Source: an uncultured virus (IMG/VR IMGVR_UViG_3300032117_000008) (lineage: Duplodnaviria > Heunggongvirae > Uroviricota > Caudoviricetes). Taken from it: a stretch of DNA of 64,000 nucleotides. Shown in pieces: positions 1 through 43,126 of this stretch; the stretch's first letter is position 1, and the number at the start of each line of letters is the position of its first letter. The stretch is taken from IMG/VR virus record IMGVR_UViG_3300032117_000008; one strand, 5' to 3'. A model generated the notes under the pieces. That model saw only the letters and a program-made list of their open reading frames with translations. It ran no database searches and was not told where the DNA came from. The translations under genes and the position numbers were made by a program.

Positions 1-38
1 ATAATAACCTTTGTAATTCGTTATCATCTATTTATAAA

Positions 39-590
39 ATGGAGGTTCTTATTAATATCTTCTACGTTGACGAAGATCCTATGGACGCTGCTCAGGCGCT
101 CGTAGATAAACACGTTGTTAAAATGATTCTCGAGAGCGCACAGCTGCTTTCGACAGCACATCGAGTACTTGATGGTCAAGAAATCGAAGGTAAATCAGCA
201 ACTGGTCGTAAAGCTCGTCGTTGGATTCTTCCAGACGCTCGTGACGATGTTATGTATGCTGCTACGCATATCAATCATCCGTCAGCCGTTTGGTGCCGCA
301 CTTCTGTACGTAACTACGATTGGCTCGTAGATCACTTTTACGCTTTGATGCGAGAGTATAATCATCGTTATAACAAAACGCACAAATGCTACGGTGAACT
401 CTCATATATGCTTCAATCTCCGCCGCATAACTTGAAAGCTTGGGAGTGGACTGAGATGCCATCTTGTATGGCAGAAGAGTATATTATTTCTAAAGACCCG
501 ATAATCAATTATCGTAATTATTATCGCGAAGGTAAGAAAAATTTACACAAATGGACTAACAGACAACCTCCGGAGTGGATCAATGCGTAG
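39..590 (+). CDS. Pyrimidine-dimer DNA glycosylase (DenV-like) family protein
   Basis: NIFYVDEDP..A..DKHVVKMILESAQLLSTAH and THINHPSAVW motifs. Confidence 0.7.
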   Translation: MEVLINIFYVDEDPMDAAQALVDKHVVKMILESAQLLSTAHRVLDGQEIEGKSATGRKARRWILPDARDDVMYAATHINHPSAVWCRTSVRNYDWLVDHFYALMREYNHRYNKTHKCYGELSYMLQSPPHNLKAWEWTEMPSCMAEEYIISKDPIINYRNYYREGKKNLHKWTNRQPPEWINA

Positions 591-786
591 TTGGGAATGG
601 GACTGGTTTATTGGATGGACCTGTGCGACAGTAATGGTTTTAGGTATTGTAAGTATGATTTACTTTGGCGTTCAAAGTACGAATGAGAAATATTATGCAT
701 CTATGGATAAGTGCATTTCTGTTGGTGGTTCATTTGTTCCTACATCTCAAGGTAATGCAATTTGTCTTATGAGTAACAAGCAATGA
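583..786 (+). CDS. Small membrane protein
   Basis: One hydrophobic segment; overlaps neighbours in the operon. Confidence 0.6.
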   Translation: MRSWEWDWFIGWTCATVMVLGIVSMIYFGVQSTNEKYYASMDKCISVGGSFVPTSQGNAICLMSNKQ

Positions 787-1073
787 ATAAAGACGAAATG
801 ATTTTGTCTTTAGAAAAAGAATTAGAAGAAGAAATAAAAACTTGGAAGAGAAATTCTCCAAAAGAAATACACCGTAAAAAAGAAGAAAGAATTTTTTTAT
901 TTCGTTCTGTTATTGCGTATTTAAAGGGAAATTTTAAATTGAGAGAATCTTCTCTTGATTCAAAAATTAGTAAAGCTTATGGTAAAGATGCTATCAAGCA
1001 AGCTGCAGATGGTAAATTTTTTAGAGATACACTAGGGTCTGCTTGGGCTATAAAAAAGGAAGAATCAAAATGA
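783..1073 (+). CDS. Hypothetical protein
   Basis: Start and stop overlap both neighbours. Confidence 0.55.
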   Translation: MNKDEMILSLEKELEEEIKTWKRNSPKEIHRKKEERIFLFRSVIAYLKGNFKLRESSLDSKISKAYGKDAIKQAADGKFFRDTLGSAWAIKKEESK

Positions 1074-1453
1074 CTATGTTTACAGACGTTCGTGATTTTC
1101 ATCAGGCATTTGGTCAGCGTATTGGCGATAAGCCAGAGTTTCCTGATGACGATGAGCGCAAGCTTAGAGTAAAGCTTCTTAGAGAAGAAGTCCGAGAATA
1201 TATGGACGGTGAATCATTCAATGATCTTGTTGAAGTCGCTGATGCACTAGCTGATATTATTTACATCGCTTGTGGTACTGCCGTTTCTTATGGCATTCCT
1301 CTCGACGATATTTTTGCTGAAGTTCATAGAAGTAATATGGCTAAACTTGTTGATGGTAAAGTACTTCGTCGTGAAGATGGTAAAATAATGAAGCCCGAAG
1401 GTTGGACTCCTCCAAACGTTAAAAAAATCTTAGAAAAGAAAATAAGAAGTTGA
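1070..1453 (+). CDS. MazG-like NTP pyrophosphohydrolase (PRA-PH/DR2231 type)
   Basis: LLREEVRE, EVADALADIIY, EVHRSNMAK, RREDGKIMKP. Confidence 0.85.
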   Translation: MTMFTDVRDFHQAFGQRIGDKPEFPDDDERKLRVKLLREEVREYMDGESFNDLVEVADALADIIYIACGTAVSYGIPLDDIFAEVHRSNMAKLVDGKVLRREDGKIMKPEGWTPPNVKKILEKKIRS

Positions 1454-1519
1454 TAATACGTCACAATTAAGCTATAATTGATGCATATATAGTATGTGTA
1501 GATATTGAAGGAGAACAAT

Positions 1520-2893
1520 ATGGTTAAACGTATAGTAGCAAAACAAATTTTTGATTCAGAACATATGTTGGGTAAGTTCCCGACTGAATCTGATTATGAT
1601 ATTGTAATCAATGAAGATACAGATTGTTATTTACCACCTCTTTGTGATATATCCCGAAAAGCCAGTTGTGATCTAGAGTGTAGCGATTGTATGAAAGGTA
1701 ATGACGAACGTAGAATAGCTTTTAAATTTCGTAAAAATTATTTCTCTACAGAAGAACAAAAGTTGGCTTACGAGGGGCTTCGTGAAGCTGCGACACAAAG
1801 TCAAAACAGAGGACTGGCTGCTGGCCCGCGTGGAGAAATATTGGAAGCTCAAGGACCAGGCGGCCGCGATTGGGTGAACGCTTATGAATTAGAAATTCTT
1901 AATTTGTTTTTAGACAACGGTGCTGATCTTGGGGAATTTACTGGAGAAAAGAAAACTGTTGAATCTATTAGAAAAAAGTATAAAGAAGGTAAAGGCGATA
2001 AGGAAGAAGTTCGCGGACACGTTTGGTTACGTAGCGAAGTTATGAAAGAATATCCTGATTATTTTGGTTGGTTTGATAAATGGGTTGATGGTCTAAGTAA
2101 TAAGCCTCATGAAATGATCAAAGCTGAAGCTGAAAGAGCTTTTAATGAATGGATTTCGGACACTAATTACGCTCAATCCGTTTTTTCGGGCGTCGCTGGT
2201 TGGTATGATCGTTACCCGAGAATTCCTTACGGCCGCGCGACTTCTTATACTGAAAAAAACCCAGAGCTATTTAAGAAAGCTTATCCTTTCCTACAATCTT
2301 TGAATCGCGGATTCAAAGATTTGTTGCCATGGCGTTGGAACAACCAAAAAGAAGCAGCTGATAAGCTTGACCCCAGATATCTAGTTCCTGGAACAGTTTT
2401 TACAACTATTACTGTTAACAAATCGTTTAGGACTGCTTGTCATAGAGACGCCGGAGATTTAAACGAAGGTTTATCGAACCTGTTGGTTCTAGGTGATGGA
2501 GAATACACAGGCGGATATCTAGTGTTTCCGCAAGTAAGAATAGCGGTTAATGTTCGTCCTGGAGACCTATTGTTGGTGAATAATCATGAAGTAATTCATG
2601 GTAATACTGAAATTAAACTCAATCATGAAAAAGCAGAACGTATTTCAATCGTTTGTTATTTCCGTGAAAAAATGCTTGAGCTTAAATCTTTCGAATATGA
2701 AAATCTACGTAAACAATTTGTCGACGAGCGTAGATTGAATAAATCGCATAAACTTTGGAGACCTCTTTGGAACGGAGTTTCCCCCGGTATGTGGGAAGAT
2801 CAAGAGTGGTATGATTATCTGAAAGCTCATAATATGGAAGATCCGTATAAGAAAGAAGCTGCAGCTAGTTTAGAGGATTTCTTTGATGATTAA
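1520..2893 (+). CDS. TET/JBP-family 2OG-Fe(II) dioxygenase
   Basis: TACHRDAGD (HxD), HGNT (distal His), RISIVCYFRE (2OG-binding Arg); RBS AAGGAG. Confidence 0.8.
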   Translation: MVKRIVAKQIFDSEHMLGKFPTESDYDIVINEDTDCYLPPLCDISRKASCDLECSDCMKGNDERRIAFKFRKNYFSTEEQKLAYEGLREAATQSQNRGLAAGPRGEILEAQGPGGRDWVNAYELEILNLFLDNGADLGEFTGEKKTVESIRKKYKEGKGDKEEVRGHVWLRSEVMKEYPDYFGWFDKWVDGLSNKPHEMIKAEAERAFNEWISDTNYAQSVFSGVAGWYDRYPRIPYGRATSYTEKNPELFKKAYPFLQSLNRGFKDLLPWRWNNQKEAADKLDPRYLVPGTVFTTITVNKSFRTACHRDAGDLNEGLSNLLVLGDGEYTGGYLVFPQVRIAVNVRPGDLLLVNNHEVIHGNTEIKLNHEKAERISIVCYFREKMLELKSFEYENLRKQFVDERRLNKSHKLWRPLWNGVSPGMWEDQEWYDYLKAHNMEDPYKKEAAASLEDFFDD

Positions 2894-4025
2894 TGAAAAT
2901 AGTGTCCATCCTATAGGTAGATGGAGCGAAATAGAAAAAACAAAAGAAATAATTGACCTCAAACAAGGTATGGATTTTCGCGAACCACAATATCGCCGCG
3001 AAGTATTTTTAAGATTTTATGAATTTCATCTTAAATATCGCTCTCATCCAGGGGCGGTATATTTTATGTTTCCTTATTTACAATACAAATTTTCTTTAAC
3101 AGAAGAAGATATGTATTGGTTGACGTTTATTAACGGCGTAAGTCAAAATATAGTAACAACTTGGACCATCTTTAAAAAATATCCAAATTTCAATATTAAT
3201 CCGAATGAAATTCAACAATATATATTGGATAATTGGAATAAATTAGAATGGGATATGGACCGCCGCTATTGTAAAACTAAATTTGGTAAAGCTCTAGAAT
3301 CTTATCAAACTTTAGTTGGTAATGAAACACAAAAACAATTTTGGGAAGAATTGGGTAGTTTCAAAAACTGTTGGGAAACTGTGTTAAATAAATTTTATGC
3401 TTTTGGTAGGCTTTCGACCTTTTCTTTCCTTGAATATCAGCGTATAATTGGGCTTGATGTAGATTGTGATGAATTATTTTTGACGGATATGTCTGGTAGT
3501 AAATCTCATAGAAACGGTTTAGCGATTGTGTTAGGTAGAGATGATCTAGATTGGCACAATAAAACAAATCCGAATTTTCAAGGATATAAAAAAGAACATT
3601 TAAGTTGGTTGATCGAAGAAGGAGAATTACTTCTTGAAGAATCTAAAATAAGATTTAAAAACAAACCTTTTTATAAAGACGTTTCTTATTTTACTCTTGA
3701 ATCAACGCTTTGTTGTTATAAATCTTGGCACCGTAAAAATAGAAGATATCCTAATGTCTATGTGGATATGTTTCATGATAGAATTAAAAGAGCCGAAAAG
3801 GTTTGGGAAGGTAAAGAAGATTTTAATTTATTTTGGGAAGCTAGAGAAAAATATTTACCGAATAATTTAAGGTTAGAATGTAATCCTTCAGATCCAGGTC
3901 TTCACCCAATTAAACAAAATCATTATTTAAAGACTGGTCAAGTTATAATGATGGATAATGATTGGGAATGTTTTAAGAATGATTTTAATCAAAATTTGAA
4001 TAATAATTTGGAGAAATTTATATGA
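2883..4025 (+). CDS. Putative alpha-glutamyl/putrescinyl-thymine pyrophosphorylase (clade 2-like) amino acid:DNA transferase
   Basis: HhH-like FGRLSTFSFLEY, GSKSHRNGL, ESTLCCYKSWH, RYPNVY; sits between the TET/JBP gene and a P-loop kinase. Confidence 0.65.
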   Translation: MMINENSVHPIGRWSEIEKTKEIIDLKQGMDFREPQYRREVFLRFYEFHLKYRSHPGAVYFMFPYLQYKFSLTEEDMYWLTFINGVSQNIVTTWTIFKKYPNFNINPNEIQQYILDNWNKLEWDMDRRYCKTKFGKALESYQTLVGNETQKQFWEELGSFKNCWETVLNKFYAFGRLSTFSFLEYQRIIGLDVDCDELFLTDMSGSKSHRNGLAIVLGRDDLDWHNKTNPNFQGYKKEHLSWLIEEGELLLEESKIRFKNKPFYKDVSYFTLESTLCCYKSWHRKNRRYPNVYVDMFHDRIKRAEKVWEGKEDFNLFWEAREKYLPNNLRLECNPSDPGLHPIKQNHYLKTGQVIMMDNDWECFKNDFNQNLNNNLEKFI

Positions 4026-4561
4026 AAATTATTGCTATTGGCGGAGAACCTGGTTCCGGTAAATCCACGTTGATGAAAATGATATTGGAAAAATATAAAT
4101 TTGAACCCAAGTATACAAGTTATAAATTAGTTCCTTACCTTCAATTTGATAACATTTACGTATTGGGTAAATACGAAGAAGGGGAAGTATTTTCAGGGAC
4201 AGATCGTATGTCAATGGCAGTACAACCGGAAGCAATAAAGTTTCTTGACTTTTTGAGTAAAGATAGTATAGTATTATTTGAGGGTGATAGGTTATTTACT
4301 TCTTCTTTCCTAGAACATTGTATTGATAATTTCGATACAACAGTAATTTATCTATCAACTACGAAAGATATTAGAACAGAACGTTATAAAGAACGCGGTA
4401 GCGACCAAAATGAAACTTGGTTGGCGGGTAGAGAAACTAAATTGAATAACATAATGACAAACTTCAATATTATGTTTAACGTTGAAAAGTTTGAAAATAA
4501 TAATAAAAAAGACCAATTGGTTGTCTTTGAAAGAATTGTGGATATTATTAATGACAAGTAA
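4022..4561 (+). CDS. P-loop kinase, putative 5-hydroxymethyluracil-DNA kinase
   Basis: Walker A GGEPGSGKST, GTDRMS, FEGDRL, ERGSDQNETW; gene context. Confidence 0.7.
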   Translation: MKIIAIGGEPGSGKSTLMKMILEKYKFEPKYTSYKLVPYLQFDNIYVLGKYEEGEVFSGTDRMSMAVQPEAIKFLDFLSKDSIVLFEGDRLFTSSFLEHCIDNFDTTVIYLSTTKDIRTERYKERGSDQNETWLAGRETKLNNIMTNFNIMFNVEKFENNNKKDQLVVFERIVDIINDK

Positions 4562-4847
4562 AGATAAAAAAATCTCATACAAATATGCTGAAGATCGGAT
4601 TATTGAAGATTTCAAAGCCTATATAGATAAGACATACGATGCTCATTACAAAACAGAAAACGATGTTCAATGTTTTGATGCATGGATTGCTCTCGGGGAC
4701 GCCACTCCTACTTTTCGTAACACAGGATTAAAATATCTTTGGCGTTATGGTAAGAAAAATGGTAATAACAAAGATGACTTGATGAAAACCCTACATTACA
4801 CGCTAATGTGTTTGTTTAACGATCATTATAAAAATAAAGGTGAATAA
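4551..4847 (+). CDS. DUF3310-like (T7 gp1.7-related) protein
   Basis: HY..., LKYLWRYGKKNG...DLMKTLHY. Confidence 0.65.
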   Translation: MTSKDKKISYKYAEDRIIEDFKAYIDKTYDAHYKTENDVQCFDAWIALGDATPTFRNTGLKYLWRYGKKNGNNKDDLMKTLHYTLMCLFNDHYKNKGE

Positions 4848-4850
4848 AGT

Positions 4851-5708
4851 ATGGAAATTAACATTAACGTAGAAGAATTAAGAAAGCGTAAGCTTTTTAT
4901 CGCCACTCCAATGTATGGTGGCGCATGTGCTGGTATGTTTGCTAAGTCTTGTGCTGATCTTTCGGCGATTTGTGCTCAGTATGGAATACCGCTTCAATAT
5001 TATTTTTTGTTTAACGAATCACTGATTACGCGCGCAAGAAATTACTGTTGCGATGAGTTTATGCGTTCCGATGCAGAACATTTGATGTTTATTGATTCTG
5101 ATATTGGATTTAATCCCCAAGACGTTATCGCCTTGATGGCTCTTCAAGCACAAAATCCAGAAAAGTATGATATCATTGGCGGACCTTATCCTAAAAAGTG
5201 TATTTCTTGGGAAAAGATTAAACGTGCGGTAGATAAGGGTGTTGCCGATGCTGATCCTAACGTGCTTGAAAAGTTTGTTGGCGATTTTGTATTTAATCCA
5301 AAGGGCGGTCAACAGTCAATTGCTATTGGAGAACCTTGTGAAGTTCTAGAAATTGGAACTGGATTTATGATGATTACTAAGCCAGCAATGCAGAAGTTTA
5401 CGGACTCATATCCTCAGTATATGTATAAGCCAGATCATGTTCGCACTGAGCACTTTGACGGTACTCGCGAGATCATGATGTATTTTCAAGCTGAAGTCGA
5501 TCCAGTCTCAAAGAGATACTTGTCCGAAGACTATTGGTTTTGTCAAAAGGCTCAACAAATTGAACTTAAGACATGGTTCTGCCCATGGATGAAAATGCAG
5601 CATGTAGGAACGTATATTTTTGGTGGTTCTCTTGCTGATTTGGCGTCAATTGGCGCTGCCGCTACTGCTGACCCTTCTCAGCTAGGCGGTAAACAGAAGA
5701 AGAAGTAA
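4851..5708 (+). CDS. GT-A fold glycosyltransferase-like protein
   Basis: IATPMYGG, SLITRARN, FIDSD (DxD), GTGFMMI, SEDYWFC. Confidence 0.7.
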   Translation: MEININVEELRKRKLFIATPMYGGACAGMFAKSCADLSAICAQYGIPLQYYFLFNESLITRARNYCCDEFMRSDAEHLMFIDSDIGFNPQDVIALMALQAQNPEKYDIIGGPYPKKCISWEKIKRAVDKGVADADPNVLEKFVGDFVFNPKGGQQSIAIGEPCEVLEIGTGFMMITKPAMQKFTDSYPQYMYKPDHVRTEHFDGTREIMMYFQAEVDPVSKRYLSEDYWFCQKAQQIELKTWFCPWMKMQHVGTYIFGGSLADLASIGAAATADPSQLGGKQKKK

Positions 5709-5739
5709 AATATTTAAATTAACGAAAGGTGAATAAATT

Positions 5740-6393
5740 ATGAAGATTGATACTAATACAATTAATGTACTTAAGAACTTCGCAAAGATTAATCCTTCTA
5801 TCGTAATTCAGGAAGGTAATACATTGAAGACTATTTCGACGTCTAAGACTATTATGGCAAAGGCGACGGTAACAACTGAATTTGATAAGCGTTTTGCGAT
5901 CTATAATCTTGATCGTTTTATTTCTGCATTGAGTTTGTTCAACAACCCCGAACTAGATTTCAATGATAAGTACGTTAATATTTTCGACGCCAACAAGAGC
6001 ACTCATTATACTTATGCCGACGAAAGCACGATTACTAAGACTCCGGAAAAGGAAATCAAGCTTCCTTCTATCGACGTTACTTTCACTCTAACCAATGATA
6101 ATTTGAAGGACGTTGAAAAGGCTGCTGGCGTTTTGGGACTTCCGGAAATTGTCGTTGTTGGTGACGGAAAGCTAATTAGCTTGCAAGCCGCCGACACCAA
6201 GAATCCTTCTGGTGATGTGTATTCTGTTGAAATCGGAACAACCAATAAAACTTTTAAGGCTATTTTTAAGTCTGAAAATATCAAGATCATCCCTGGAGAT
6301 TATGAAGTTAGTATTTGTTCTAAAGGTATTTCTTGCTTTAAGGGCAAGGAAGCTGATTATTGGATTGCAGTAGAGCAGTCTTCAACTTTCTAA
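5740..6393 (+). CDS. 45: Sliding clamp gp45
   Basis: LKNFAKINPSI, FAIYNLDRFI, C-terminal YWIAVE; precedes gp44. Confidence 0.92.
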   Translation: MKIDTNTINVLKNFAKINPSIVIQEGNTLKTISTSKTIMAKATVTTEFDKRFAIYNLDRFISALSLFNNPELDFNDKYVNIFDANKSTHYTYADESTITKTPEKEIKLPSIDVTFTLTNDNLKDVEKAAGVLGLPEIVVVGDGKLISLQAADTKNPSGDVYSVEIGTTNKTFKAIFKSENIKIIPGDYEVSICSKGISCFKGKEADYWIAVEQSSTF

Positions 6394-6456
6394 GTTTACC
6401 TTTGACTTGGGAGGGGCTATAATATAGTTCCTCTTTTTTTATCATGGAGATATATT

Positions 6457-7395
6457 ATGAGAGAAGAGTTCCTGTGGGTCGAGAAGTATCGCCCAAAAAC
6501 TATAGAAGAAACTATCCTTCCGATTGAATTAAAAGCTGTTTTTCAACAGTTTGTAGATCAACAAAATATTCCAAACCTTATTCTTTCTGGTTCTGCCGGT
6601 GTTGGTAAAACAACGGTAGCTAGAGCAATGTTAGAACAGCTTGGTTGTGATTACATTGTTATTAACGGTTCTATGAATGGTAATATCGACACTCTTAGAA
6701 ACGAAATCCTAAACTTCGCTTCATCTGTTTCTCTTTCTGGAGGGCGTAAGTATGTTATTCTTGATGAGGCGGATTATCTAAACGCCAATTCGACTCAACC
6801 GGCTCTTCGTAACTTCATGGAAGAGTTTTCTAGAAATTGCGGGTTTATTCTTACTTGTAACTTTAAAAATAGGATTATCGAGCCTCTTCATTCTCGTTGT
6901 TCGGTTATCGACTTTAAAATCGGTAAAAAAGAAATGGCGAAACTCGCGATGCAGTTTATGAAGCGAGTGTCAAACATTCTTAATTCTGAAAACATAGAAT
7001 TCGATAAAGCTGTCGTCGCAGAAGTAATTCAAAAACATTTTCCTGATTGGCGTAGAGTTCTTAACGAGCTTCAGCGTTATTCGGCGACGGGTAAAATTGA
7101 TTCTGGTATTTTGGCTAACCTACAACAAGTTTCTATCAAGGAACTGGTTTCTATGCTCAAGGAAAAGAATTTTTCTGGGCTACGTAAATGGGTTGGGGAA
7201 AATCTTGATAATGATCAGAACAGTATATTTCGTCAGTTGTATGATACAGCCTCAGAATTTCTCCCTCCTACCGATGTAGCTCAACTGGTGTTGATATTGG
7301 GTAAATATCAATATCAAGCGGCTTTCGTTGCGGATCAGGAAATTAATCTTATGGCTTGTCTAACGGAAATTATGATCAATTTGGAATTCAACTAA
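6457..7395 (+). CDS. 44: Clamp loader large subunit gp44 (AAA+)
   Basis: LWVEKYRP, GSAGVGKTT, ILDEAD, SRC motif. Confidence 0.95.
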   Translation: MREEFLWVEKYRPKTIEETILPIELKAVFQQFVDQQNIPNLILSGSAGVGKTTVARAMLEQLGCDYIVINGSMNGNIDTLRNEILNFASSVSLSGGRKYVILDEADYLNANSTQPALRNFMEEFSRNCGFILTCNFKNRIIEPLHSRCSVIDFKIGKKEMAKLAMQFMKRVSNILNSENIEFDKAVVAEVIQKHFPDWRRVLNELQRYSATGKIDSGILANLQQVSIKELVSMLKEKNFSGLRKWVGENLDNDQNSIFRQLYDTASEFLPPTDVAQLVLILGKYQYQAAFVADQEINLMACLTEIMINLEFN

Positions 7396-7778
7396 TGAAC
7401 CCTTTTGATTATGTAAATTCTATTCTTTATTCAAAGAAAAATCTTATAGTTGACGAAGTGACGGAGAAATCATATTCTCCGTTTCTAACTAATAGAGCCT
7501 TGTCGTATCATAAAGACACTATACTTCACGCTCAAGAAATGAATCTTAACGGTCATTTAGACAAAAAACTTCAATTCGATTATTTCATAAATATTATACG
7601 CCCAACAAAAAGAACTAATAGTAAGTGGGCCAAGAAAGAAAAAGATAGCAATATTGAAGCCATTCAAGAATATTTTGGATATAATTATAATAAAGCTAAG
7701 ACTGCATCTTTTATTCTTTCCAAAGAACAATTGAAGGAAATAAAGAAAAAATTAGAAAAAGGTGGTTTAGATAAATGA
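7395..7778 (+). CDS. 62: Clamp loader small subunit gp62
   Basis: YSPFLTNRALS, EMN, LQFDYF, EYFGY; synteny. Confidence 0.88.
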   Translation: MNPFDYVNSILYSKKNLIVDEVTEKSYSPFLTNRALSYHKDTILHAQEMNLNGHLDKKLQFDYFINIIRPTKRTNSKWAKKEKDSNIEAIQEYFGYNYNKAKTASFILSKEQLKEIKKKLEKGGLDK

Positions 7779-8785
7779 TGAAAGTTTTAGATAATTTTTT
7801 TACCGAAGAAATATTAAACAAATTGCTCAAGGATTATAATAATTCGCCAATGAGATATGGTTGGCTTTCTCATGAGCAAAACGACCCACATGGCCATTGG
7901 TTTTTAGATTTTGGAAAAACTAATAGTAAAAATTTATCAGATGTTTCCAACAATATTCCTGAATTTTTATTACACGTTAAAAATTATATAACTGATAAAA
8001 TTGATATTTTAGATAATACTGTTTTAATTAGATGTTATATAGGAGGACATACTTTTGGAGTTGATGGTTATTATCATACAGATAGTACCCGATCTGACGA
8101 AATTACTTTTGTATTTTATTTGGTTGAGGGTAAATGGGAATTTGATTGGGGTGGAGAAACATCTTTCATAACACCAAACGAAGAAGTTTTTTCTGTAATA
8201 CCAAAAAAGAATCGTGTTGTTATTTTTCAATCAAACATACAACATTGCGCACGTGGCGTTTCTAGAAAATATAATGGTTTGAGAAAAACATTAATGTTTA
8301 AATTTAGAAGAAAACGTTCTGATAATTTTGAAAAATTAAGTAGATTTCTTGTTAAACATAATGCGCTGAATTATAATCATATGATAGGTTCATTACACGA
8401 TCATCTGGTTAGAACCTATCAATTATTGGAAAATGGTAATTTACCTGAACATGTATGTTTTGCGGCTGGATTACATTCTGTTTTTGGTACGACAATATAC
8501 AGAAATCAACTTTTAAAATTAGAAGATAAAGACTTAATTATAAATGAATTTGGCGAAAAGACTTTTGAATTGGTTTCATATTTTTCTAGAATCAATAGAC
8601 CAAAAACGTTGGAAACTTATGTTGATAATAATATAGAGTTTAATGATGGTTCGTTTATTAAACTTGATGATGATATTATATTGAATCTCAAGTATATTGA
8701 GTGTGCAAATTTAGAAGATCAAAAAAGCCTAAATATAGAAAAATACCCTAACCTTTATAATTTATGGTATAATAATGTAAAATAA
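7775..8785 (+). CDS. 2OG-Fe(II) oxygenase fused to an HD-like C-terminal domain
   Basis: HTD, WGGET, H...R triad; C-terminal SLHDHLVRTY...AGLHSVFGT. Confidence 0.7.
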   Translation: MMKVLDNFFTEEILNKLLKDYNNSPMRYGWLSHEQNDPHGHWFLDFGKTNSKNLSDVSNNIPEFLLHVKNYITDKIDILDNTVLIRCYIGGHTFGVDGYYHTDSTRSDEITFVFYLVEGKWEFDWGGETSFITPNEEVFSVIPKKNRVVIFQSNIQHCARGVSRKYNGLRKTLMFKFRRKRSDNFEKLSRFLVKHNALNYNHMIGSLHDHLVRTYQLLENGNLPEHVCFAAGLHSVFGTTIYRNQLLKLEDKDLIINEFGEKTFELVSYFSRINRPKTLETYVDNNIEFNDGSFIKLDDDIILNLKYIECANLEDQKSLNIEKYPNLYNLWYNNVK

Positions 8786-8802
8786 TAAGAAAAGAGGCAA
8801 AT

Positions 8803-9201
8803 ATGAATATTCTAGATTCGTTGATTGAAGTGAAAATAGCGGAAGAAGAAGATTTTCTTAAAATTAAAGAAACTCTAACTCGTATTGGTGTCGCTTCTAG
8901 AAAAGATAAAAAGTTATATCAATCTTGTCATATTTTTCACAAACAAGGAAAATATTATATCGTCCATTTCAAAGAAATGTTTTCGATAGACGGTAAGCCT
9001 TCAAATTTTTCAGATGAAGATAAAGGACGCCGTAATAAGATCGTCAGCCTTTTGGAAGATTGGGGATTGTTGAAAGTGGTGGAACCGCAAAAGATTAAAG
9101 AACCAATTTCTCCAATGAGTCAAATCAAAATTATCAATCATAAAGAGAAAAAAGATTGGATTTTAGAGGCTAAGTATAATATGGGTAGAAAAAAGAATTG
9201 A
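8803..9201 (+). CDS. regA: Translational repressor RegA
   Basis: FLKIKETLTRIGVAS, LYQSCHI, YYIVHFKE. Confidence 0.95.
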   Translation: MNILDSLIEVKIAEEEDFLKIKETLTRIGVASRKDKKLYQSCHIFHKQGKYYIVHFKEMFSIDGKPSNFSDEDKGRRNKIVSLLEDWGLLKVVEPQKIKEPISPMSQIKIINHKEKKDWILEAKYNMGRKKN

Positions 9202-9219
9202 TTAGAAGGAAATTATATT

Positions 9220-9576
9220 ATGTTTAAATTCTTAAAGAAAGATCCGCCAACTCCATCTGATAAAATAATAGAAGAAATTAAAAAGATTCTATTTCCTCCT
9301 CTTAAGTTACAAACAGCTTCTAAAGACGGCCAAATAACAAAATTTCATATAGATTATTCGGTCGATAGTAATTTAGACGCGGTATTGATGGATCTTCAAG
9401 AAGGATACAATGACGAGGTTTCTCAAAAAACTATTAATAAAGTAATCAATCGTCTTAATAAGGTTAGAACTTTGTTAGAAGCTTATGCAGAACTTGATAA
9501 AGACGCTCAATATATAATCGTCGAAGATTTGGAGGATAGCGAAGATGTCGAGGCTGCATCAGAAAACTTTAGATAA
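9220..9576 (+). CDS. Hypothetical protein
   Basis: ORF with RBS. Confidence 0.6.
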   Translation: MFKFLKKDPPTPSDKIIEEIKKILFPPLKLQTASKDGQITKFHIDYSVDSNLDAVLMDLQEGYNDEVSQKTINKVINRLNKVRTLLEAYAELDKDAQYIIVEDLEDSEDVEAASENFR

Positions 9577-11249: not shown

Positions 11250-11285
11250 ATAATATTGATCAATATACTTAAAGGTGAACAAATT

Positions 11286-11957
11286 ATGGCAGATCAAATT
11301 TCTAATTTACAAGGCGATCAAGCCTTATTCTATACTTTCCCTAATAACGGTGTTGTATTTCATAGAGTTCCTGAAGATATAATGTCTAAGGTTCGTGAAG
11401 TAACCGACGGCGCTGTTGAGAAAGAGTTTGAAGGTTCTGTAGAAGCTGGTTATAAACTTACTGCAAACATTTCAAGAGAATATGACTTTACAAAAGAACT
11501 TTCTCCAGTTTTGTTGGATTATATTAATAGCTTGATAGATTTACACAATCATAGATCGCAACCGCATTTTATCAACGAAGTAGTTAACGTTGCTTCGCAT
11601 CCAAGACGGTTTAAGTTTAAAGACGTTTGGGCTAACTTCCAAAAGAAGCACGAATTTCATCCTCATCATATTCATGGTGGTGTTTATTCTTTCGTTATCT
11701 GGACGAAGATACCTTATAATATTCAAGATGAAATAGCGGTTTTTCCAAAGGCCACTCTTAAGTGTGCTTCAATGTTTGTCTTTTATTACACAGATATTCT
11801 TGGTCAAGTTAGAAGTCATCCTATTCCGGTCGATCATCCTTATGAAGGTATAATTTGTCTGTTCCCCAAAGGATTAGGTCATTCAGTTAACCCTTTCTAC
11901 ACTTCAGATGATTATAGAATTGCGGTATCGGGCGATATCGTTATGGATACGGATTAA
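11286..11957 (+). CDS. Putative 2OG-Fe(II) oxygenase (phage type)
   Basis: WANFQKKHEFHPHHIH, HSVNPF, RIAVSG. Confidence 0.75.
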   Translation: MADQISNLQGDQALFYTFPNNGVVFHRVPEDIMSKVREVTDGAVEKEFEGSVEAGYKLTANISREYDFTKELSPVLLDYINSLIDLHNHRSQPHFINEVVNVASHPRRFKFKDVWANFQKKHEFHPHHIHGGVYSFVIWTKIPYNIQDEIAVFPKATLKCASMFVFYYTDILGQVRSHPIPVDHPYEGIICLFPKGLGHSVNPFYTSDDYRIAVSGDIVMDTD

Positions 11958-11969
11958 TAGGAGTTATAT

Positions 11970-12554
11970 ATGGAACATTTTTATCAGAACGTTGAAGGTT
12001 GGTTTAATTATCCGGATATGTTTAAGTATGCAGTTGATACTGCGCCCGACAAGGCTCATTTCGTTGAAATAGGTACTTGGAAAGGTCAGAGCTCTGCTTT
12101 TTTGGCTGTAGAAATTATCAATAGCGGTAAAGATATTAAGTTAGATTGTATCGATAATTTTACCGGATCTGTTATCGAACCTGGTCAGATGTTTGATCCG
12201 GACAATAAGGCGGGTCGTTTGTTGGGTGTTTTTAAGGATAATATGAGGCCTGTTGTTGGTCATTACGAAGCAATTAAGGGAGATAGCACAGAATCGGCTA
12301 GTCTTTACGAAGATGAGTCTTTGGATTTTGTCTTTATTGACGCTTCTCACGATTATGAATCTTTTCGTAAAGACCTTTTGGCTTGGTTTCCAAAAGTTAA
12401 AGTTGGTGGTTTGTTGGCTGGACACGATTTCGCAGATCCTTATCAAGGAATTATGAAGGCTGTTAGAGACCATCTCGTTAACGAGAAAGTCGGAGTAACA
12501 CCTTCTACTTGTTGGTTTTGCTTCAAGACGCAAAAGGTTCTCGCTAACGTATAA
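11970..12554 (+). CDS. Class I SAM-dependent methyltransferase (Methyltransf_24-like)
   Basis: VEIGTWKGQS, FVFIDASHDY, GGLLAGHD. Confidence 0.85.
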   Translation: MEHFYQNVEGWFNYPDMFKYAVDTAPDKAHFVEIGTWKGQSSAFLAVEIINSGKDIKLDCIDNFTGSVIEPGQMFDPDNKAGRLLGVFKDNMRPVVGHYEAIKGDSTESASLYEDESLDFVFIDASHDYESFRKDLLAWFPKVKVGGLLAGHDFADPYQGIMKAVRDHLVNEKVGVTPSTCWFCFKTQKVLANV

Positions 12555-17456: not shown

Positions 17457-18890
17457 ATGTCAACATTTGTTAATGCCGTTAAGAACCAGACTGCTCGTAC
17501 TACTAATGGTATGAAGGCTCGTAAGTCTACTGCCAATTCAGTTACTGATCTTTTCTATAAGATTGGTGCATCTCGCGGTAAGAACGTAATTCCTGACTTT
17601 ACGGCAGCTTATGTTCAAGATAAGGAATTGGCTGGCCGTGTTGTTCTTTGGGCGCGTGATATTCGCGGAGGCGCTGGTGAGCGTAAGATTTTCCGGGATA
17701 TTCTAGAATATGCTTGTGATCATGATCCTGCATATGCGGAGCGTCTTTTGAAGCGTGTTCCCGAGCTTGGACGTTGGGACGATATCTTTGTTACCAAGGG
17801 TGATTTGCGTCAGATCGCATTTGCGATGGTTCGTGATGCTCTTGAAGCCAAGAATGGTCTTGCTGCTAAGTGGATGCCACGTAAGGGTAAGGAAGCCGCT
17901 GAACTTCGTTCGTTCCTTGGAATGTCACCTAAGCAGTATCGTAAGACACTGGTTAGCTTGACCAAGGTTGTTGAGCAGGACATGTGCGCTAAGAATTGGG
18001 ATGAAATTAATTTCAACCATGTTCCTTCGCTTGCTTCTTCTAGATATAAGAAGGCTTTCTCACGTCACACTGAGAAGTATAAGGAGTGGACTACTGCTCT
18101 TGTTTCGAAGGATCCTGAAGTAGCAAAGACTGTCAAGGTCAATGCTGGTGCGGTTTATCCGTATGATGTGCTGAAGGGTGTTTCTCCTTACGGTTACAAT
18201 GCGTCATATAATCAGTCGAACCTCGATCACATTCGTGCTCAGTGGGATGATCTTCCTAACTTTGTTGGTGATGCAAACATCCTTCCGCTCGTTGACGTTT
18301 CTGGTTCAATGACTTCACCTGCTGGTGGCTATAACTCCAAGTCGAAGGTAACTTGCCTTGACGTTTCTGTTTCTCTTGGTCTTTACCTTGCTGAAAAGAA
18401 CACTGGTAAGTTTAAGGATACGTTCTTGACTTTCTCTGGCAAGCCTGAGCTGCTTCATCTTCGTGGTAACATCCTCGATAAGGTTAAGCAGATGGTAACT
18501 TCGAAGTGGGACATGAACACTAACCTGCATCTCGCGCTGGATAAAATCCTTCTCACTGCAATTGAAGGTAATGTTCCTCAGTCAGAAATGCCTGCAATGC
18601 TGCTGATTCTTTCGGACATGCAGTTTGATCAGTGCACTACTCACGATGACTCTGCTATGGAAATGATTGCTCGTAAGTATATCTATCATGCTTACAATAT
18701 GCCTAACATCGTTTTCTGGAACTTGAATGCACATGAAAATGTGCCTGTTAAGTTCGATGAACGAGGCGTTGCTCTTGTTTCTGGTTTCTCTCCAACTATC
18801 GTTAAGTCGGTGTTGGCTGCTGATTTGGAGGACTTTACTCCGGAGGCGATCATGCTTAAGACATTAATGTCTGATCGCTACGACTTCTAA
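17457..18890 (+). CDS. DUF2828-type TROVE-like/vWA (Ro60-related) protein
   Basis: RDIRGGAGER, GRWDD, AAKWMPR, VPSLA; vWA MIDAS DVSGSM, SDMQFD, FWNL. Confidence 0.8.
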   Translation: MSTFVNAVKNQTARTTNGMKARKSTANSVTDLFYKIGASRGKNVIPDFTAAYVQDKELAGRVVLWARDIRGGAGERKIFRDILEYACDHDPAYAERLLKRVPELGRWDDIFVTKGDLRQIAFAMVRDALEAKNGLAAKWMPRKGKEAAELRSFLGMSPKQYRKTLVSLTKVVEQDMCAKNWDEINFNHVPSLASSRYKKAFSRHTEKYKEWTTALVSKDPEVAKTVKVNAGAVYPYDVLKGVSPYGYNASYNQSNLDHIRAQWDDLPNFVGDANILPLVDVSGSMTSPAGGYNSKSKVTCLDVSVSLGLYLAEKNTGKFKDTFLTFSGKPELLHLRGNILDKVKQMVTSKWDMNTNLHLALDKILLTAIEGNVPQSEMPAMLLILSDMQFDQCTTHDDSAMEMIARKYIYHAYNMPNIVFWNLNAHENVPVKFDERGVALVSGFSPTIVKSVLAADLEDFTPEAIMLKTLMSDRYDF

Positions 18891-24069: not shown

Positions 24070-25068
24070 TTAGCAGCTGCTTGTTATTCTTGAACCGTAA
24101 TCCGTGAAACCGAAATCGTAAATTTTACAGTTGGTGTCTCTAGTTACTGATTGTATCACTTTATCGCGATTATTGGGATCGACGTAAAATAAGAAGAAAC
24201 CACCACCGCCTGCACCGAGAAGTTTTCCGCCTAGAGCGCCAGCCTTTAGAGCTCTATCATATATCTGGTCGAAGTAGTCGTTAGTGATGTCGGCGGCGAC
24301 ACCCTTTTTATCCATCCACGCTTCATGGAGCAAACTACCGAAATCGTCGAGTTTATTTTCGCTCAGCAATTTTGCACCAATAAAAGCTTTATCTCTAGAC
24401 CTTCTGACTAAGTCAAACTTATCTTTTTCGTTCATTGCAGCCGCTTGTTTCTGTAAAATAGAATTTGCATTACGTCCGCGACCAGAATAAACAAGTAACA
24501 ATCTCCTTTCTAGATTACTCCAAAGATTTCGATCGTAAGTTAAAGGTTTAATATCAACAGAACCGTCACCATGAAACTCAAATAGGTTCATACCGCCATA
24601 AGCCGAGGCGTATTGATCTTGCTTACCGACTGGATACTTACATAGTTCTCGTTCGATATAATATGCCTTTTGAGCTAGATACTCGCGCGTCAACAACGAG
24701 TAACGGCTCTGTTCGTCTCTATGCGCCAGACAATTAACCAGACCGATAGTGAAGGCCGAAGAAGATCCAAGTCCAGATCCTTTAGCTAAAATATCGGCGA
24801 TCGAAGCGATCGTATACTCTTTAATCACGTCGTAGTGTTTCAAACTTTCTCTAGTAATAGCGTGTTGCATCTGTTCGACGTCGGGGAATTCTTCGATCGT
24901 GTCGTACATGATCTTAATTCCCAAATGAGGAGTCTTATGAAGCATCACGTAGATGTACTTATCAATCGTAACAGACAAAGCAGCGCCGCTTTCCTTTTCA
25001 AAGAAAGAAGGCATGTCGCTGCCGCCGGAAAAGAAACTAATACGCAAAGGCGTTTTAGAAAGAATCAT
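24070..25068 (-). CDS. hddA: GHMP kinase, HddA-like heptose-7-phosphate kinase
   Basis: PLRISF..GGSD, GSGLGSSS, GKQDQY, GGKLLGAGGGGF. Confidence 0.8.
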   Translation of the reverse strand: MILSKTPLRISFFSGGSDMPSFFEKESGAALSVTIDKYIYVMLHKTPHLGIKIMYDTIEEFPDVEQMQHAITRESLKHYDVIKEYTIASIADILAKGSGLGSSSAFTIGLVNCLAHRDEQSRYSLLTREYLAQKAYYIERELCKYPVGKQDQYASAYGGMNLFEFHGDGSVDIKPLTYDRNLWSNLERRLLLVYSGRGRNANSILQKQAAAMNEKDKFDLVRRSRDKAFIGAKLLSENKLDDFGSLLHEAWMDKKGVAADITNDYFDQIYDRALKAGALGGKLLGAGGGGFFLFYVDPNNRDKVIQSVTRDTNCKIYDFGFTDYGSRITSSC

Positions 25069-26072
25069 TAAATTGTCCTGTAAATAAATTTTTGTTGTGG
25101 CTTGCCACGAGACTCAACAGTCTTATATTTACCGAGTTGATCCTCAATCATCACATCCCACTTATGTTTGATTAGATTGATGTTGTAACGAGTATCAACA
25201 AAAACCTTATTGAACATAATCATATTTTGTTCCTGATTGCTTTTCACAAAATTAATTGCATTATTCAGATGATTGATGAAAATATTCGCGTGATGATTTT
25301 TGTCCATAAGATCGGCATGATACATAAGATTCAATCCGCCAGAAGTTTCTGGTAATGCACCAACATCAGAATGAACACAGACCAATCCAGCTGACATAGC
25401 TTCTAACATAGCTCTACAGCTGGTTTCGTACCAAATACTTGGATAAGCAAAAATATGAGCCTTGTTCAACGCTTCCTTCAATTCTTCATTAGGAACGTAT
25501 CCATGATAAGTCATTTGAGGATGATTTCTGATTTGATCATACATAGGCTCAAACGACTTATCAGCATCTTCCCAACCGTAAATCTTAAAACTTGAATATA
25601 CATCTAGATGAATTTCTGGATGCATCTTCGCCAATGAATCAAACACCGGCAAAAGAATTTCCAATCCTCTTTGCGGGGTTGAAGTGTACACCAATCGAAT
25701 CTTGTCTTTTGGTTTAACCAAAGCTGATTGTGGCGCTGGTTCAATACCGGATTCAATTACGATTGACTTAGGATCGTGAGCCAATCCATGAATTAGCTGA
25801 TACCTTTGCATCTGCCAGTTAGAAATAAAAACAAACTTATGATAGTTATCCCTAAAAGATTGATCCCTGAACTTCGCCGATTCAGGATCTTCTGGTAGAT
25901 CATGACACCAGAAAACTCTAATTTTTTCCCAATTTAGTTCGCGTTCCCTTGAACATACAATTTGAAATTCTTCCAAATCTTTTGGATTAATTAGAGAAGC
26001 TAGCTTACGTTTAGCAAGCTCAGTTCCGCCGTTAGCCTTTATAGAAATTTCGTTTTCTTCAAATCCAATCAT
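25068..26072 (-). CDS. GT-B glycosyltransferase (GT4-like)
   Basis: YTSTPQRGL, ETSCRAMLEAMSAG, GALPET. Confidence 0.8.
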   Translation of the reverse strand: MIGFEENEISIKANGGTELAKRKLASLINPKDLEEFQIVCSRERELNWEKIRVFWCHDLPEDPESAKFRDQSFRDNYHKFVFISNWQMQRYQLIHGLAHDPKSIVIESGIEPAPQSALVKPKDKIRLVYTSTPQRGLEILLPVFDSLAKMHPEIHLDVYSSFKIYGWEDADKSFEPMYDQIRNHPQMTYHGYVPNEELKEALNKAHIFAYPSIWYETSCRAMLEAMSAGLVCVHSDVGALPETSGGLNLMYHADLMDKNHHANIFINHLNNAINFVKSNQEQNMIMFNKVFVDTRYNINLIKHKWDVMIEDQLGKYKTVESRGKPQQKFIYRTI

Positions 26073-26800
26073 ATTGTGTACCCCGATTTAATAGCATCAT
26101 TATAGAACATTTGGCAAGTTTCTTTAGAAAATTGTGTTAAATCTTTACCGAAACCCTTAACCTTTTTGATGAGATCAGGAGTCATGGTTATAATATCACA
26201 ACCGGACCATTCGGCGTGTTTAATGTTATAAGCTTCTCTAGAAGAAGCCCATAGAAATTCTGCTTTACCGCCTTCGTTTCTAATATCATCATACAAACCA
26301 ACACAACGAGAAACAATTGATTCCGGATCTTCACCAGCGTCCGCAATACGACCAGCGAAAATTGAAATTATACTAGGAACTTCTGGGCAAAATCTATCGA
26401 TTATATTGCTTACTTGATATTCGGTAAAAACCGCAGTAACGTTAAGATTAATTCCTTCATAACTTAAACTTTGAATCAAATCATAAGTATCTTCGCCCGA
26501 AGTATACATGACAGGAATTTTTACATATACTTGATAATTCTTTTCGTTACCCCAATCACTGATAATTCTAGCTTGTCGACGAATTTCGTCAGGTTCATCG
26601 GCGAACACTTCTAAACTTAGAGTTGTTTCGGGCCTATTCCTTGCCAAAAATTTAATAACGTTTTTGGCAAATTCTTCATAATTCATAACGCCAGCTTGAC
26701 GCATCAAAGTTGGATTAGTTGTAAACCCCGTTATTGTTTTATCTCCAGCCGCATCGATTATTCCCACCATATCGGCGCCATCGGCGTATAATTTAATCAT
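26069..26800 (-). CDS. tal: Transaldolase (TalC-type)
   Basis: GFTTNPTL, YVKIP (Schiff-base Lys), NVTAVF, FAGRIAD. Confidence 0.85.
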   Translation of the reverse strand: MIKLYADGADMVGIIDAAGDKTITGFTTNPTLMRQAGVMNYEEFAKNVIKFLARNRPETTLSLEVFADEPDEIRRQARIISDWGNEKNYQVYVKIPVMYTSGEDTYDLIQSLSYEGINLNVTAVFTEYQVSNIIDRFCPEVPSIISIFAGRIADAGEDPESIVSRCVGLYDDIRNEGGKAEFLWASSREAYNIKHAEWSGCDIITMTPDLIKKVKGFGKDLTQFSKETCQMFYNDAIKSGYTI

Positions 26801-27327
26801 TTATTAATCTCCTCAATCAAGGTACAAGCTTCTAAAACATTAGAAACAATATAATCAGGTTGTATATTTCTATATTCGTAAGGGTATGTGTATTCTTCAC
26901 CAACGAAAATAGTTTTTAGTTTGCTTCTATTACCAGCAACTATATCTTTCCAACGATCACCTATTATATAGGATTTACTACGATCGATCAAGTATTTTTT
27001 AATTATATCTTCAATCATACCGTTGTTGGGTTTATACATATTGGAATTTCTATCGTCAGCGTAGTATATATCATCTATTCTCAACCAATTAGAAATCATT
27101 CTATGCATATTATCTAAATCTTTGTAAGACAATGGACCTTTGACGTCAGGTTGATTTGTTACAACAAAAGTTTTATAGTCCATATTTCTGACGATATTCA
27201 CCGCTACTTTAACATTATCAATAAATTGAAACTCGTCGAGAAACCAAGGGGCTGTTTTAGAACCATCTGGTCTTTCGACGAGTTTATTAATTACACCATC
27301 ACGATCAAAAAAAATTGCTCGATTCAT
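26797..27327 (-). CDS. gmhB: Heptose-1,7-bisphosphate phosphatase (HAD)
   Basis: FFDRDGVIN, VTNQ, KP..GM, IGDRWKD. Confidence 0.82.
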   Translation of the reverse strand: MNRAIFFDRDGVINKLVERPDGSKTAPWFLDEFQFIDNVKVAVNIVRNMDYKTFVVTNQPDVKGPLSYKDLDNMHRMISNWLRIDDIYYADDRNSNMYKPNNGMIEDIIKKYLIDRSKSYIIGDRWKDIVAGNRSKLKTIFVGEEYTYPYEYRNIQPDYIVSNVLEACTLIEEINK

Positions 27328-27328
27328 T

Positions 27329-27913
27329 TCACCACTTTGTTTTATTAACCTGTAAAGAAGGATTGGAAACTATAGCATGCCAAATAACAGCTTGAAAAGC
27401 TTCGCTATGTGGCGTGATTCTGGAAGGTTGAATAGGAGGAACTACTACACAATAATCAGCGTTGTAAGCGGTGTATCCGTCTTTCTTACCGACTATACCC
27501 AATACGACGGCGTTTTTTGATTTTGCTTGATCGATGGCCTTAATTAATCCTACAGAAACGTTTTTATTCTTATCGCCACCACCAACAGATAAAATAAAAA
27601 GAGCATCTTTTGAACTTAACTTACTGATTTTAAGATATTCATCAAATACGGTGTCAAACCCTTCGTCATTTGTTCTAGCAGTAAGCTCTGGAACGTTATC
27701 TGTGGGGCAATAAGACTCGATACCACAAAGCTTACGTAGGTCGTTGACCAGGTGAGAAGCGTTTCCTGCTGATCCTCCAACACCGAGAACGAAAACCCTC
27801 CCGTTTGATTCTCTGACTCTTTTGAGAGCGGCAACTAACTTCTCCACCATATTTTTATCTATAGCTTCGGCAATAGAAACTACTTCTTCAAAGTATTTAT
27901 CACTAAAACTCAT
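27329..27913 (-). CDS. gmhA: Phosphoheptose isomerase (SIS domain)
   Basis: GVGGSAGNASH, TARTND. Confidence 0.8.
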   Translation of the reverse strand: MSFSDKYFEEVVSIAEAIDKNMVEKLVAALKRVRESNGRVFVLGVGGSAGNASHLVNDLRKLCGIESYCPTDNVPELTARTNDEGFDTVFDEYLKISKLSSKDALFILSVGGGDKNKNVSVGLIKAIDQAKSKNAVVLGIVGKKDGYTAYNADYCVVVPPIQPSRITPHSEAFQAVIWHAIVSNPSLQVNKTKW

Positions 27914-40759: not shown

Positions 40760-40815
40760 ATAAATGATTCCTTGATAGAAGTGTTATCTCAGAACTATTT
40801 ATAATAATTTATAAA

Positions 40816-43125: not shown

Positions 43126-43126
43126 T

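Follow-up and report, generated by a model that had tools for sequence, protein, structure and literature searches.

How might a phage hypermodify its thymines when no dUMP hydroxymethylase is visible, and what would keep the enzymes concerned on the DNA? This question is raised by an uncultured T4-like myophage known from IMG/VR record IMGVR_UViG_3300032117_000008, of which we analyzed one stretch of 64,000 nucleotides (hereafter, the window); the matching record, G001, has 78,898 bases and is estimated to be 47% complete. At positions 1520–4561 on the + strand, genes for a TET/JBP-type dioxygenase (TET), a clade-2 AADT (formerly aGPT-Pplase) and a P-loop kinase follow one another upstream of the gene for the gp45 sliding clamp. 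We consider it likely that the three make up a minimal cassette for thymidine hypermodification that acts entirely after replication, with TET and AADT probably held by the clamp.

The TET gene (1505 from a TTG or 1520 from an ATG to 2893, +; PF12851) overlaps the AADT gene (2883/2886–4025, +; 379/380 amino acids; PF18724-carrying homologues) by 8 nt, and the latter overlaps the kinase gene (4022–4561, +; Ploopntkinase3, PF18751) by 4 nt. Throughout the locus, the + strand genes overlap or lie 3–31 nt apart. On one side of the locus, just beyond the edge of the window, come the recombination genes gp46/gp47, and on the other gp45-gp44-gp62-RegA. A first, sequence-only reading of the window had named an oxygenase, a transferase, a kinase, a DUF3310-like protein, a GT-A protein and MazG-like and DenV-like genes in this region; all of them are present on the + strand, as closely packed as described.

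The oxygenase was correctly recognized as a TET/JBP enzyme: it matches PF12851 with E 3e-28 and 98.5 bits (cut-off 34.9), and the same domain is carried by all 120 listed homologues. The gene contexts of such TETs were reportedly first predicted by Iyer et al. in 2013. Residues H313, D315, H365 and R379 (numbered from the TTG at 1505; 5 must be subtracted for the ATG at 1520, the start of the cluster representative), which make up the HxD...H Fe(II) triad and the Arg that binds 2-oxoglutarate (2OG), are invariant in 46/46 aligned TETs. The AlphaFold2 model of the protein (predicted local distance difference test score, pLDDT, 81) contains a double-stranded beta-helix, and its top Foldseek matches are NgTET1, CcTet and TET2 (E 1e-9 to 1e-7, probability 1.00, about 250 columns); a search of the PDB with the TET profile gave marginal TET2 matches only.

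The TET family is large: at E ≤ 1e-10, it takes in 2737 of the 7999 candidates that were scored, and the protein-cluster table lists a 124,865-base contig with a TET identical to that of the window. Among isolates, the family is represented in the T4-like phages DLP6, Cr30 and C48C1 (46–47% identity), and the ParB-associated "thymidine hydroxylase" of mycobacteriophage Prince is 26% identical over 140 residues of the catalytic core (E 7e-6). The 240 N-terminal residues gave no fold match of their own. Residues 41–62 (window positions about 1625–1690) include five Cys spaced C-x5-C-x7-C-x3-C-x2-C, which are kept in most homologues, are missing in those of loci L033 and L043, and may form a zinc site.

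No ParB-sized gene lies within 3 kb of the TET gene, where all neighbours are identified or shorter than 120 amino acids, and the best tblastn match of the Prince ParB-like protein had E 0.96. A search with PF02195 (ParB) also returned nothing, but it is insensitive, because it missed the annotated Prince ParB-like gene too. Five contig numbers of the window phage were not found in the 12 supplement files of PMC13229309, a paper on the clades of the phage dioxygenases termed 5mYOXs. In the excerpts of the pelagimyophage paper PMC7029224 that we used, a 2OGFeDO protein is mentioned in freshwater genomes, and nothing further is said of it.

The AADT was placed in its family through its relatives, of which there are 1122 at E ≤ 1e-5. 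PF18724 was found in 92 of the best 120 (53–80% identical) and in 10/12 aligned relatives (best E 2e-57), and some sources label these homologues "aGPT-Pplase clade 2". The protein is 40% identical to gp3 of Prince, 38% identical to the annotated clade-2 enzyme of Glutamicibacter phage Montesquieu and 28–29% identical to ViI-like proteins (E 2e-20); a PDB search with its profile gave nothing usable. Its putative active site, E273...C277 in the motif TLESTLCC (codons 3699–3713, +), is invariant in 12/12 aligned AADTs, including a ViI-like one and that of Cr30. In M6 gp51 and ViI gp247, a conserved Cys and a neighbouring Glu are essential, and a thiolate attack on C6 has been proposed for the chemistry (Lee et al., PMC8989533; this paper and PMC13229309 are cited here from excerpts).

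The third protein matches PF18751 with E 1e-10 and 41.9 bits (cut-off 27) and has the Walker A motif GEPGSGKST. Its identity to the kinase that neighbours the thymidine hydroxylase and AADT of Prince is 28% (E 9e-14); kinases with PF18751 are thus found next to that pair, and they also lie next to the Montesquieu AADTs. Where related loci reach far enough, a kinase comes directly after the AADT in most of them, and tblastn with the window kinase found only the kinases of Cr30 and of actinophages. From its adjacency to the AADT, we predict it to be a 5-hydroxymethyluracil (5-hmU) DNA kinase.

Whether the cassette is directed at thymine, and at which stage, was approached through the genes that accompany it. 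PF00145 (C5-methyltransferase) and PF00303 (ThyA-like) gave no match in G001, G006, G002, G003–G005, DLP6 and C48C1, and PF00145 gave none in Cr30. Here, G006 is a second record of the window phage (14/14 genes 100% identical) that reaches about 31 kb further upstream, and G002 belongs to a relative, is 92% complete and encodes a TET with 64% identity. The sequence-only reading had seen a ThyX gene and no dUMP hydroxymethylase in the window. Both observations hold: ThyX is encoded at 42448–43158 on the − strand (Thy1, PF02511, E 4e-42), and a search of the examined part of the phage and of G002 gave no dUMP hydroxymethylase.

Lee et al. (2021/2022, NAR, PMC8989533) described metavirome contigs without a dUMP hydroxymethylase in which TET_JBP lies beside thymidine-hypermodifying genes. 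According to O'Toole et al. (2026, PNAS, PMC13229309), phage 5mYOXs are post-replicative thymine dioxygenases, their clade C1 is "consistently linked" with GATases, P-loop kinases and AADTs, and a C5-methyltransferase is present in only 6% of 5mYOX pathways. The earlier proposal that hmU or hydroxymethylcytosine would be made on DNA by the oxygenase is therefore sound as to a post-replicative hmU-type cassette, with hydroxymethylcytosine the less likely product, and it is not new; since this kind of pathway is already in print (Lee 2021; O'Toole 2026), the cassette is a further, minimal member of it.

From the enzymes present, we infer the following route. ThyX would supply ordinary dTMP, and the DNA would be replicated with thymine; TET would then hydroxylate a subset of the thymines in the polymer to 5-hmU, and the P-loop kinase would phosphorylate the hydroxymethyl group to give 5-phospho-hmU. 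Cys277 of the AADT, helped by Glu273, would attack C6 with expulsion of the phosphate, after which the enzyme would load the exocyclic methylene with a free amino acid or with a comparable nucleophile, either an amine or a hydroxyl. TET and AADT would probably be held on the gp45 clamps left on new DNA, so that modification would be coupled to replication. No tailoring enzyme (pyridoxal phosphate-dependent, radical S-adenosylmethionine (SAM), flavin adenine dinucleotide-dependent, GNAT or GATase) is encoded in the cassette; the final base is therefore probably an untrimmed adduct, present on part of the thymines only.

The coupling is suggested by the C-termini of two of the enzymes. TET ends in AAASLEDFFDD, where SLEDFFDD (2867–2890, +) is a putative gp45-binding peptide, and AADT ends in NNLEKFI, where NLEKFI (4005–4022, +) is a second one. 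The DNA polymerase gp43, whose C-terminal part is encoded at 62060–63373 (−) and whose N-terminal part lies outside the window, ends in RSTLEDFFG (TLEDFFG at 62063–62083). The strict tail pattern [LI][DEKGSNA]2[FWY][FILMWY]x0-3 is found in 3/105 open reading frames (ORFs) of the window, namely TET, AADT and gp43, and a looser pattern in 9/105. The proposed docking platform, gp45, is encoded just downstream (5740–6393, +; gp45-slide_C, E 2.9e-14; phrog_223, E 2e-74).

The TET tail is kept in 101/120 listed homologues by a first pattern, in 108/120 by a second and in 119/120 by a loose one; conservation of L456 and F460 reaches at least 90% in 46 sequences, and the preceding linker varies in length and sequence. 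The likeness of SLEDFFDD to the gp43 end, noted in the sequence-only reading, is thus borne out. Across 16 T4-like loci, the tail is present in TET (16/16), in AADT (12/12, all ending in [LI]xx[FL][FLMV]), in the ORFs at the position of a TET-associated glycosyltransferase (TAGT; 4/4) and in a 259-amino-acid ORF (3/3). In the same loci, the GATase, amidoligase-like, DUF3310 and GT-A ORFs have no tail, and only one kinase fits the pattern. The AADTs of Prince and Montesquieu, phages without a gp45-type clamp, have none.

The last two hydrophobic residues of the tails follow the cognate gp43. The window phage, DLP6 and C48C1 have FF, and Cr30, G002 and another relative, G008, have LF; in G002 and G008, gp43 ends in ..[ST]LEDLFT, TET in ..SSL[EA]DLF and AADT in ..GLEDLFG. 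Being close kin, these two relatives provide a single event of co-variation. As a separate observation, gp43 is split both in the window (62060–63998, −) and in locus L010 (8785–10092), and an ORF of 190–216 amino acids (63348–63998 in the window), possibly a homing endonuclease, lies between the N- and C-terminal ORFs.

In T4, the tails of gp43, gp33 and gp55 and the LDFLF motif of the ligase bind gp45 (PMC2988020, PMC6212786, both in excerpt). Nowhere in the literature that we searched is gp45 linked to a TET/JBP enzyme, and the known gp45 ligands given there include no DNA-base-modifying enzyme. In the excerpts of O'Toole et al. (PMC13229309), the word "clamp" is used only for ParB and KorB, and Burke et al. 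(2021) noted clamp-loader genes near some TET contigs, with no further comment. The tails are thus the part of our reading for which no precedent in print was found.

The composition of the cassette was compared with that of 43 IMG/VR loci containing a relative of TET, many of which, where they show no AADT, end too early for its presence to be judged. A frame, DenV-like-MazG-TET...DUF3310-GT-gp45-gp44-gp62-RegA, recurs among them, and the interval between TET and DUF3310 varies; AADT lies 3' of TET in 22/43. In the window phage (5 loci at 98–100% identity), this interval is filled by AADT and kinase alone. Elsewhere, it holds GATase_6, amidoligase-like and GNAT genes with a 28–30%-identical AADT and a kinase (for example, L026, L043, L024, L036, L044 and L049), a TAGT (PF20691) alone (L048 and L022), or the 259-amino-acid ORF with AADT and kinase (L037 and L038). 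The window has the leanest version, without a tailoring enzyme. A cultured representative is Caulobacter phage Cr30 (L002, 10027–11256; record, 51899–52321), with a TET, an AADT-like protein (21% identical, with the invariant Glu and Cys) and a kinase (38% identical), whose annotations all read either hypothetical or "SNF2 DNA repair protein". DLP6, by comparison, has only TET and the GT-A described below.

Two further genes separate the cassette from gp45. The DUF3310-like small protein (4482 from a TTG or 4551 from an ATG to 4847, +) overlaps the kinase gene by 11 nt, or by 80 nt from the TTG, and is followed after 3 nt by a GT-A fold glycosyltransferase of 285 amino acids (4851–5708, +), recognized from its fold and DxD motif; gp45 begins 31 nt beyond, and a terminator-like hairpin lies 3' of gp45. 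The former scored 19 bits with DUF3310 (cut-off 24) and E 9e-22 with phrog_480, and is present whatever cassette lies upstream. The GT-A model (pLDDT 94.6) has STIV A197 glycosyltransferase as the top Foldseek match (E 1e-9), followed by the collagen and polypeptide O-glycosyltransferases ColGalT1, LH3 and ppGalNAc-T. Its invariant residues are R63, D227, H251 and the two Asp of the DxD, D82 and D84, the latter pair being unchanged in 40 sequences; the C-terminus is Lys-rich. Searched against Pfam at E ≤ 10, the protein matched only Anp1 (0.02) and no TAGT (PF20691); the direct NCBIfam scan was empty, and a sequence search of the PDB gave nothing usable.

The GT-A family has 5531 members at E ≤ 0.001. 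Many of them are 640–1180 amino acids long and match the query in 2–4 separate stretches, as if interrupted by inteins, which would fit an important, highly conserved enzyme. GT-A is found in 65 phage records, against 13 for TET, and it lies between gp46 and gp45 in phiM12, a phage without TET. We left it outside the pathway because it does not track TET. Contrary to the sequence-only reading, which had listed both genes together with those of the cassette, GT-A and the DUF3310-like gene are conserved neighbours of gp45 that stay there whatever the cassette. Both are present in phiM12 as well, their link to the pathway finds no support, and GT-A is probably not a member of it.

Several points weigh against the proposed pathway and are best considered together with the alternatives. 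The window AADT has no Pfam match even at E ≤ 10, and its direct NCBIfam scan was also empty; for this reason its family membership was assigned via homologues, and the earlier identification of 2883–4025 as an aGPT-PPlase stands through these and the Glu/Cys pair, not through a direct profile match. PF18751 found no match in the ViI-like phage PS5, and the role of the kinase is therefore read from gene context; of the expected kinship with the characterized 5-HMUDKs, ViI gp67 and M6 gp54, what remains is a P-loop kinase next to an AADT. Cr30, with its TET, AADT-like protein and kinase, encodes a ThyA-like protein. By our estimate, G001 and G006 cover about 65% of the genome, and a C5-methyltransferase or a hydroxymethylase could lie in the rest. 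Finally, for some of the clade C1 enzymes that lack ParB, activity on thymine or 5-methylcytosine (5mC) could not be detected in E. coli (PMC13229309).

The dioxygenase might accordingly oxidize 5mC, with the cassette building a cytosine hypermodification on 5-hydroxymethylcytosine, as with the clade A/B phage TETs (Burke et al. 2021). The TET/JBP family does include 5mC dioxygenases, the nearest solved folds, NgTET1 and TET2, are 5mC enzymes, and about half of the genome lies outside G001. We nonetheless regard this as very unlikely, given that PF00145 had no match in any of the nine genomes and records searched, that the partners, AADT and P-loop kinase, are thymidine-pathway enzymes (PMC8989533), and that C5-methyltransferases are rare in 5mYOX pathways, where kinase/AADT contexts are tied to thymine dioxygenases (PMC13229309). 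It is somewhat less improbable, yet still doubtful, that GT-A glycosylates the 5-hmU made by TET, as in base J, in parallel with or after AADT, to give a mixed or sugar-bearing modification. Its occurrence in at least 50 TET-less records besides phiM12, its retention in unchanged form beside all cassette types, even those with a TAGT of their own, the lack of the clamp tail that TAGT has and of a Pfam TAGT match, and the protein O-glycosyltransferases that come next after STIV A197 among its nearest folds all speak against such a role. It is favoured by the position of the gene, 290 nt 3' of the kinase and in the same orientation, with nothing resembling a terminator up to gp45, by a true GT-A fold with DxD, by the presence of both TET and GT-A in DLP6 and Cr30, and by the rank of glycosyltransferases as the commonest 5mYOX neighbours (31%, PMC13229309).

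The tether of TET and AADT to gp45 has difficulties of its own. The window kinase, for which DNA must likewise be the substrate, is tail-less, and among the best 120 AADT homologues the tail was found in 22 by the strict pattern and in 43 by the loose one. In the predicted complex of three gp45 chains with TET residues 400–462, the score was 0.59 against 0.04 for the best control, a verdict of "weak support": the pass mark is reached by 116/157 solved complexes and 2/215 mismatched pairs, and passes with a score of 0.60 or less include only 18 of the 157 and both passing mismatches. The runs agreed in at least 80% of contacts, with a partner pLDDT of at least 69, and the pass may reflect memory of known structures, because similar clamp-peptide complexes have been solved. 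All this would suit tails that are chance or lineage-inherited acidic-hydrophobic ends, or ligands of some other common partner, with TET and AADT working as free enzymes like the ParB-independent 5mYOXs; stand-alone thymine dioxygenases do exist (PMC13229309), and 77 to 98 of the best 120 AADT homologues have no tail. We find this rather unlikely, since so few ORFs of the window carry the tail and gp43 is one of them, since it is conserved behind a variable linker and occurs on four unrelated families of the T4-like loci (TET, AADT, TAGT and the 259-amino-acid ORF), and since the choice between FF and LF tracks the cognate gp43. The clamp tether, which the sequence-only reading had suggested for the oxygenase, is thus supported by comparative evidence (conservation, the within-genome control and co-variation with gp43) and is unproven.

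Compared with known systems, our cassette is closest to the metavirome clusters of Lee et al. (PMC8989533), in which TET_JBP likewise lies beside a kinase and a clade-2 AADT without a dUMP hydroxymethylase and in-situ oxidation of thymine was proposed to give the acceptor for downstream enzymes. It differs from them in consisting of three enzymes with no tailoring gene, in its place within a T4-like replication module next to gp45, and in the polymerase-like tails of TET and AADT, which go unmentioned in the excerpts of PMC8989533. With the thymine dioxygenases of O'Toole et al. (clades C1, ParB-dependent, and C2, ParB-independent; PMC13229309), it shares a post-replicative Fe/2OG enzyme without a neighbouring C5-methyltransferase and, with C1, a context of P-loop kinase and AADT. 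Unlike those enzymes, the window TET has no ParB-sized gene within 3 kb, and it possesses an N-terminal region of 240 residues and a tail of the clamp type.

The ViI and M6 systems have a homologous AADT with the Glu/Cys pair and the same logic of kinase, then transferase. They differ in making hmU as a nucleotide with a dUMP hydroxymethylase, of which none was found in the window phage, in the kinase family (no PF18751 in the ViI-like genome) and in their pyridoxal phosphate-dependent or radical-SAM tailoring, which the cassette lacks. Genes 1–4 of Prince (ParB-like, thymidine hydroxylase, "DNA glycosylase", which is an AADT, and "adenylate kinase") have the same order of oxygenase, AADT and kinase, and the last two are 40% and 28% identical to those of the window, both kinases belonging to PF18751. 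In contrast, Prince is a siphovirus without a gp45-type clamp, with a ParB-like partner, a distant oxygenase and a tail-less AADT. Like the T4 clamp ligands (the C-termini of gp43, gp33 and gp55 and the LDFLF loop of the ligase; PMC2988020, PMC6212786), the tails are short hydrophobic-acidic C-terminal peptides behind a variable linker. The logic of TAGT and base J is met in the sister loci L048 and L022, which carry TET-TAGT where the window has AADT and kinase; the window itself encodes no TAGT, and its GT-A has no PF20691 match.

Upstream of the cassette lie two conserved neighbours, a DenV-family Pyr_excise-like gene (39–590, +; PF03013, E 1e-6, 29.4 bits, cut-off 23) and a MazG-like nucleotide pyrophosphohydrolase gene (1070–1453, +; PRA-PH, E 9e-21), with two small + strand ORFs between them; in many related loci, the MazG-like gene is directly 5' of TET. 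The gap between MazG and TET holds a candidate sigma-70-like promoter, TTGATA-17-TATAAT (1450–1478, +), which fits at 11/12 positions and is the top-scoring site of this type in 1–9300. It is backed by position and score alone, because the total number of such sites in the region is not above chance (44 observed against 36.6 ± 6.3). No TATAAATA site was found on the + strand of the locus stretch, and megablast of window positions 1–9200 against the phage collection gave no match.

Elsewhere in the window are two further 2OG-Fe(II) oxygenases, one of them fused to DUF6817 and FlmC-like (65 bits, cut-off 240), and a Methyltransf_24 gene close to the replication genes (7775–8785, 11256–11957 and 11970–12554, +). 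The variable region after the replication genes encodes a DUF2828/DUF7788 protein of 477 amino acids (17457–18890, +). A set of genes at 24070–28684 (−), with a GHMP kinase, a GT1 glycosyltransferase, a transaldolase, a HAD phosphatase, a SIS isomerase, a cytidylyltransferase-like protein and then an S-adenosylmethionine decarboxylase (speD), looks like a nucleoside diphosphate-heptose-type pathway with its own transferase. We set aside speD (28310–28684) and the sugar-nucleotide cluster (24–28 kb) as sources of the adduct donor, the sole evidence being that they are in the same genome. The large subunit of ribonucleotide reductase is encoded in two ORFs (38995–42435, −), of which the first ends and the second begins with halves of an intein splicing domain, and a free-standing GIY-YIG endonuclease ORF (40055–40759) lies between them; we take this to be the known "fractured gene" or split-intein arrangement.

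Taken together, these results add a minimal three-enzyme member to the known thymidine hypermodification pathways, and it comes from abundant environmental T4-like phages (more than 2,700 TET homologues). The rationale of post-replicative modification has been called a mystery, and ParB, itself a DNA clamp, has been proposed to keep its 5mYOX on DNA (O'Toole et al. 2026, PMC13229309). In the phages considered here, several unrelated modifying enzymes carry a transplantable peptide that appears to recruit another clamp, gp45; such a tether would link base modification to replication in a way that is simple and can be tested. The practical handles that it suggests are the co-expression of gp45/gp44/gp62 to activate "silent" phage TETs and the use of the cultured Cr30 as a model.

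A wider proposal, which seems to us quite possible and which we put forward tentatively, is that in T4-like phages gp45 serves as the activator and processivity factor of ParB-less thymine dioxygenases and of the enzymes that follow them (AADT, TAGT and a methyltransferase-like protein). If true, this could explain why some ParB-less phage TETs proved inactive when expressed alone in E. coli. It would also mean a third mode of DNA engagement beside those of the stand-alone and ParB-dependent 5mYOXs, a phage counterpart of DNMT1-PCNA coupling, in which the clamp would act as a "tool-belt" writing hypermodified bases just behind the fork.

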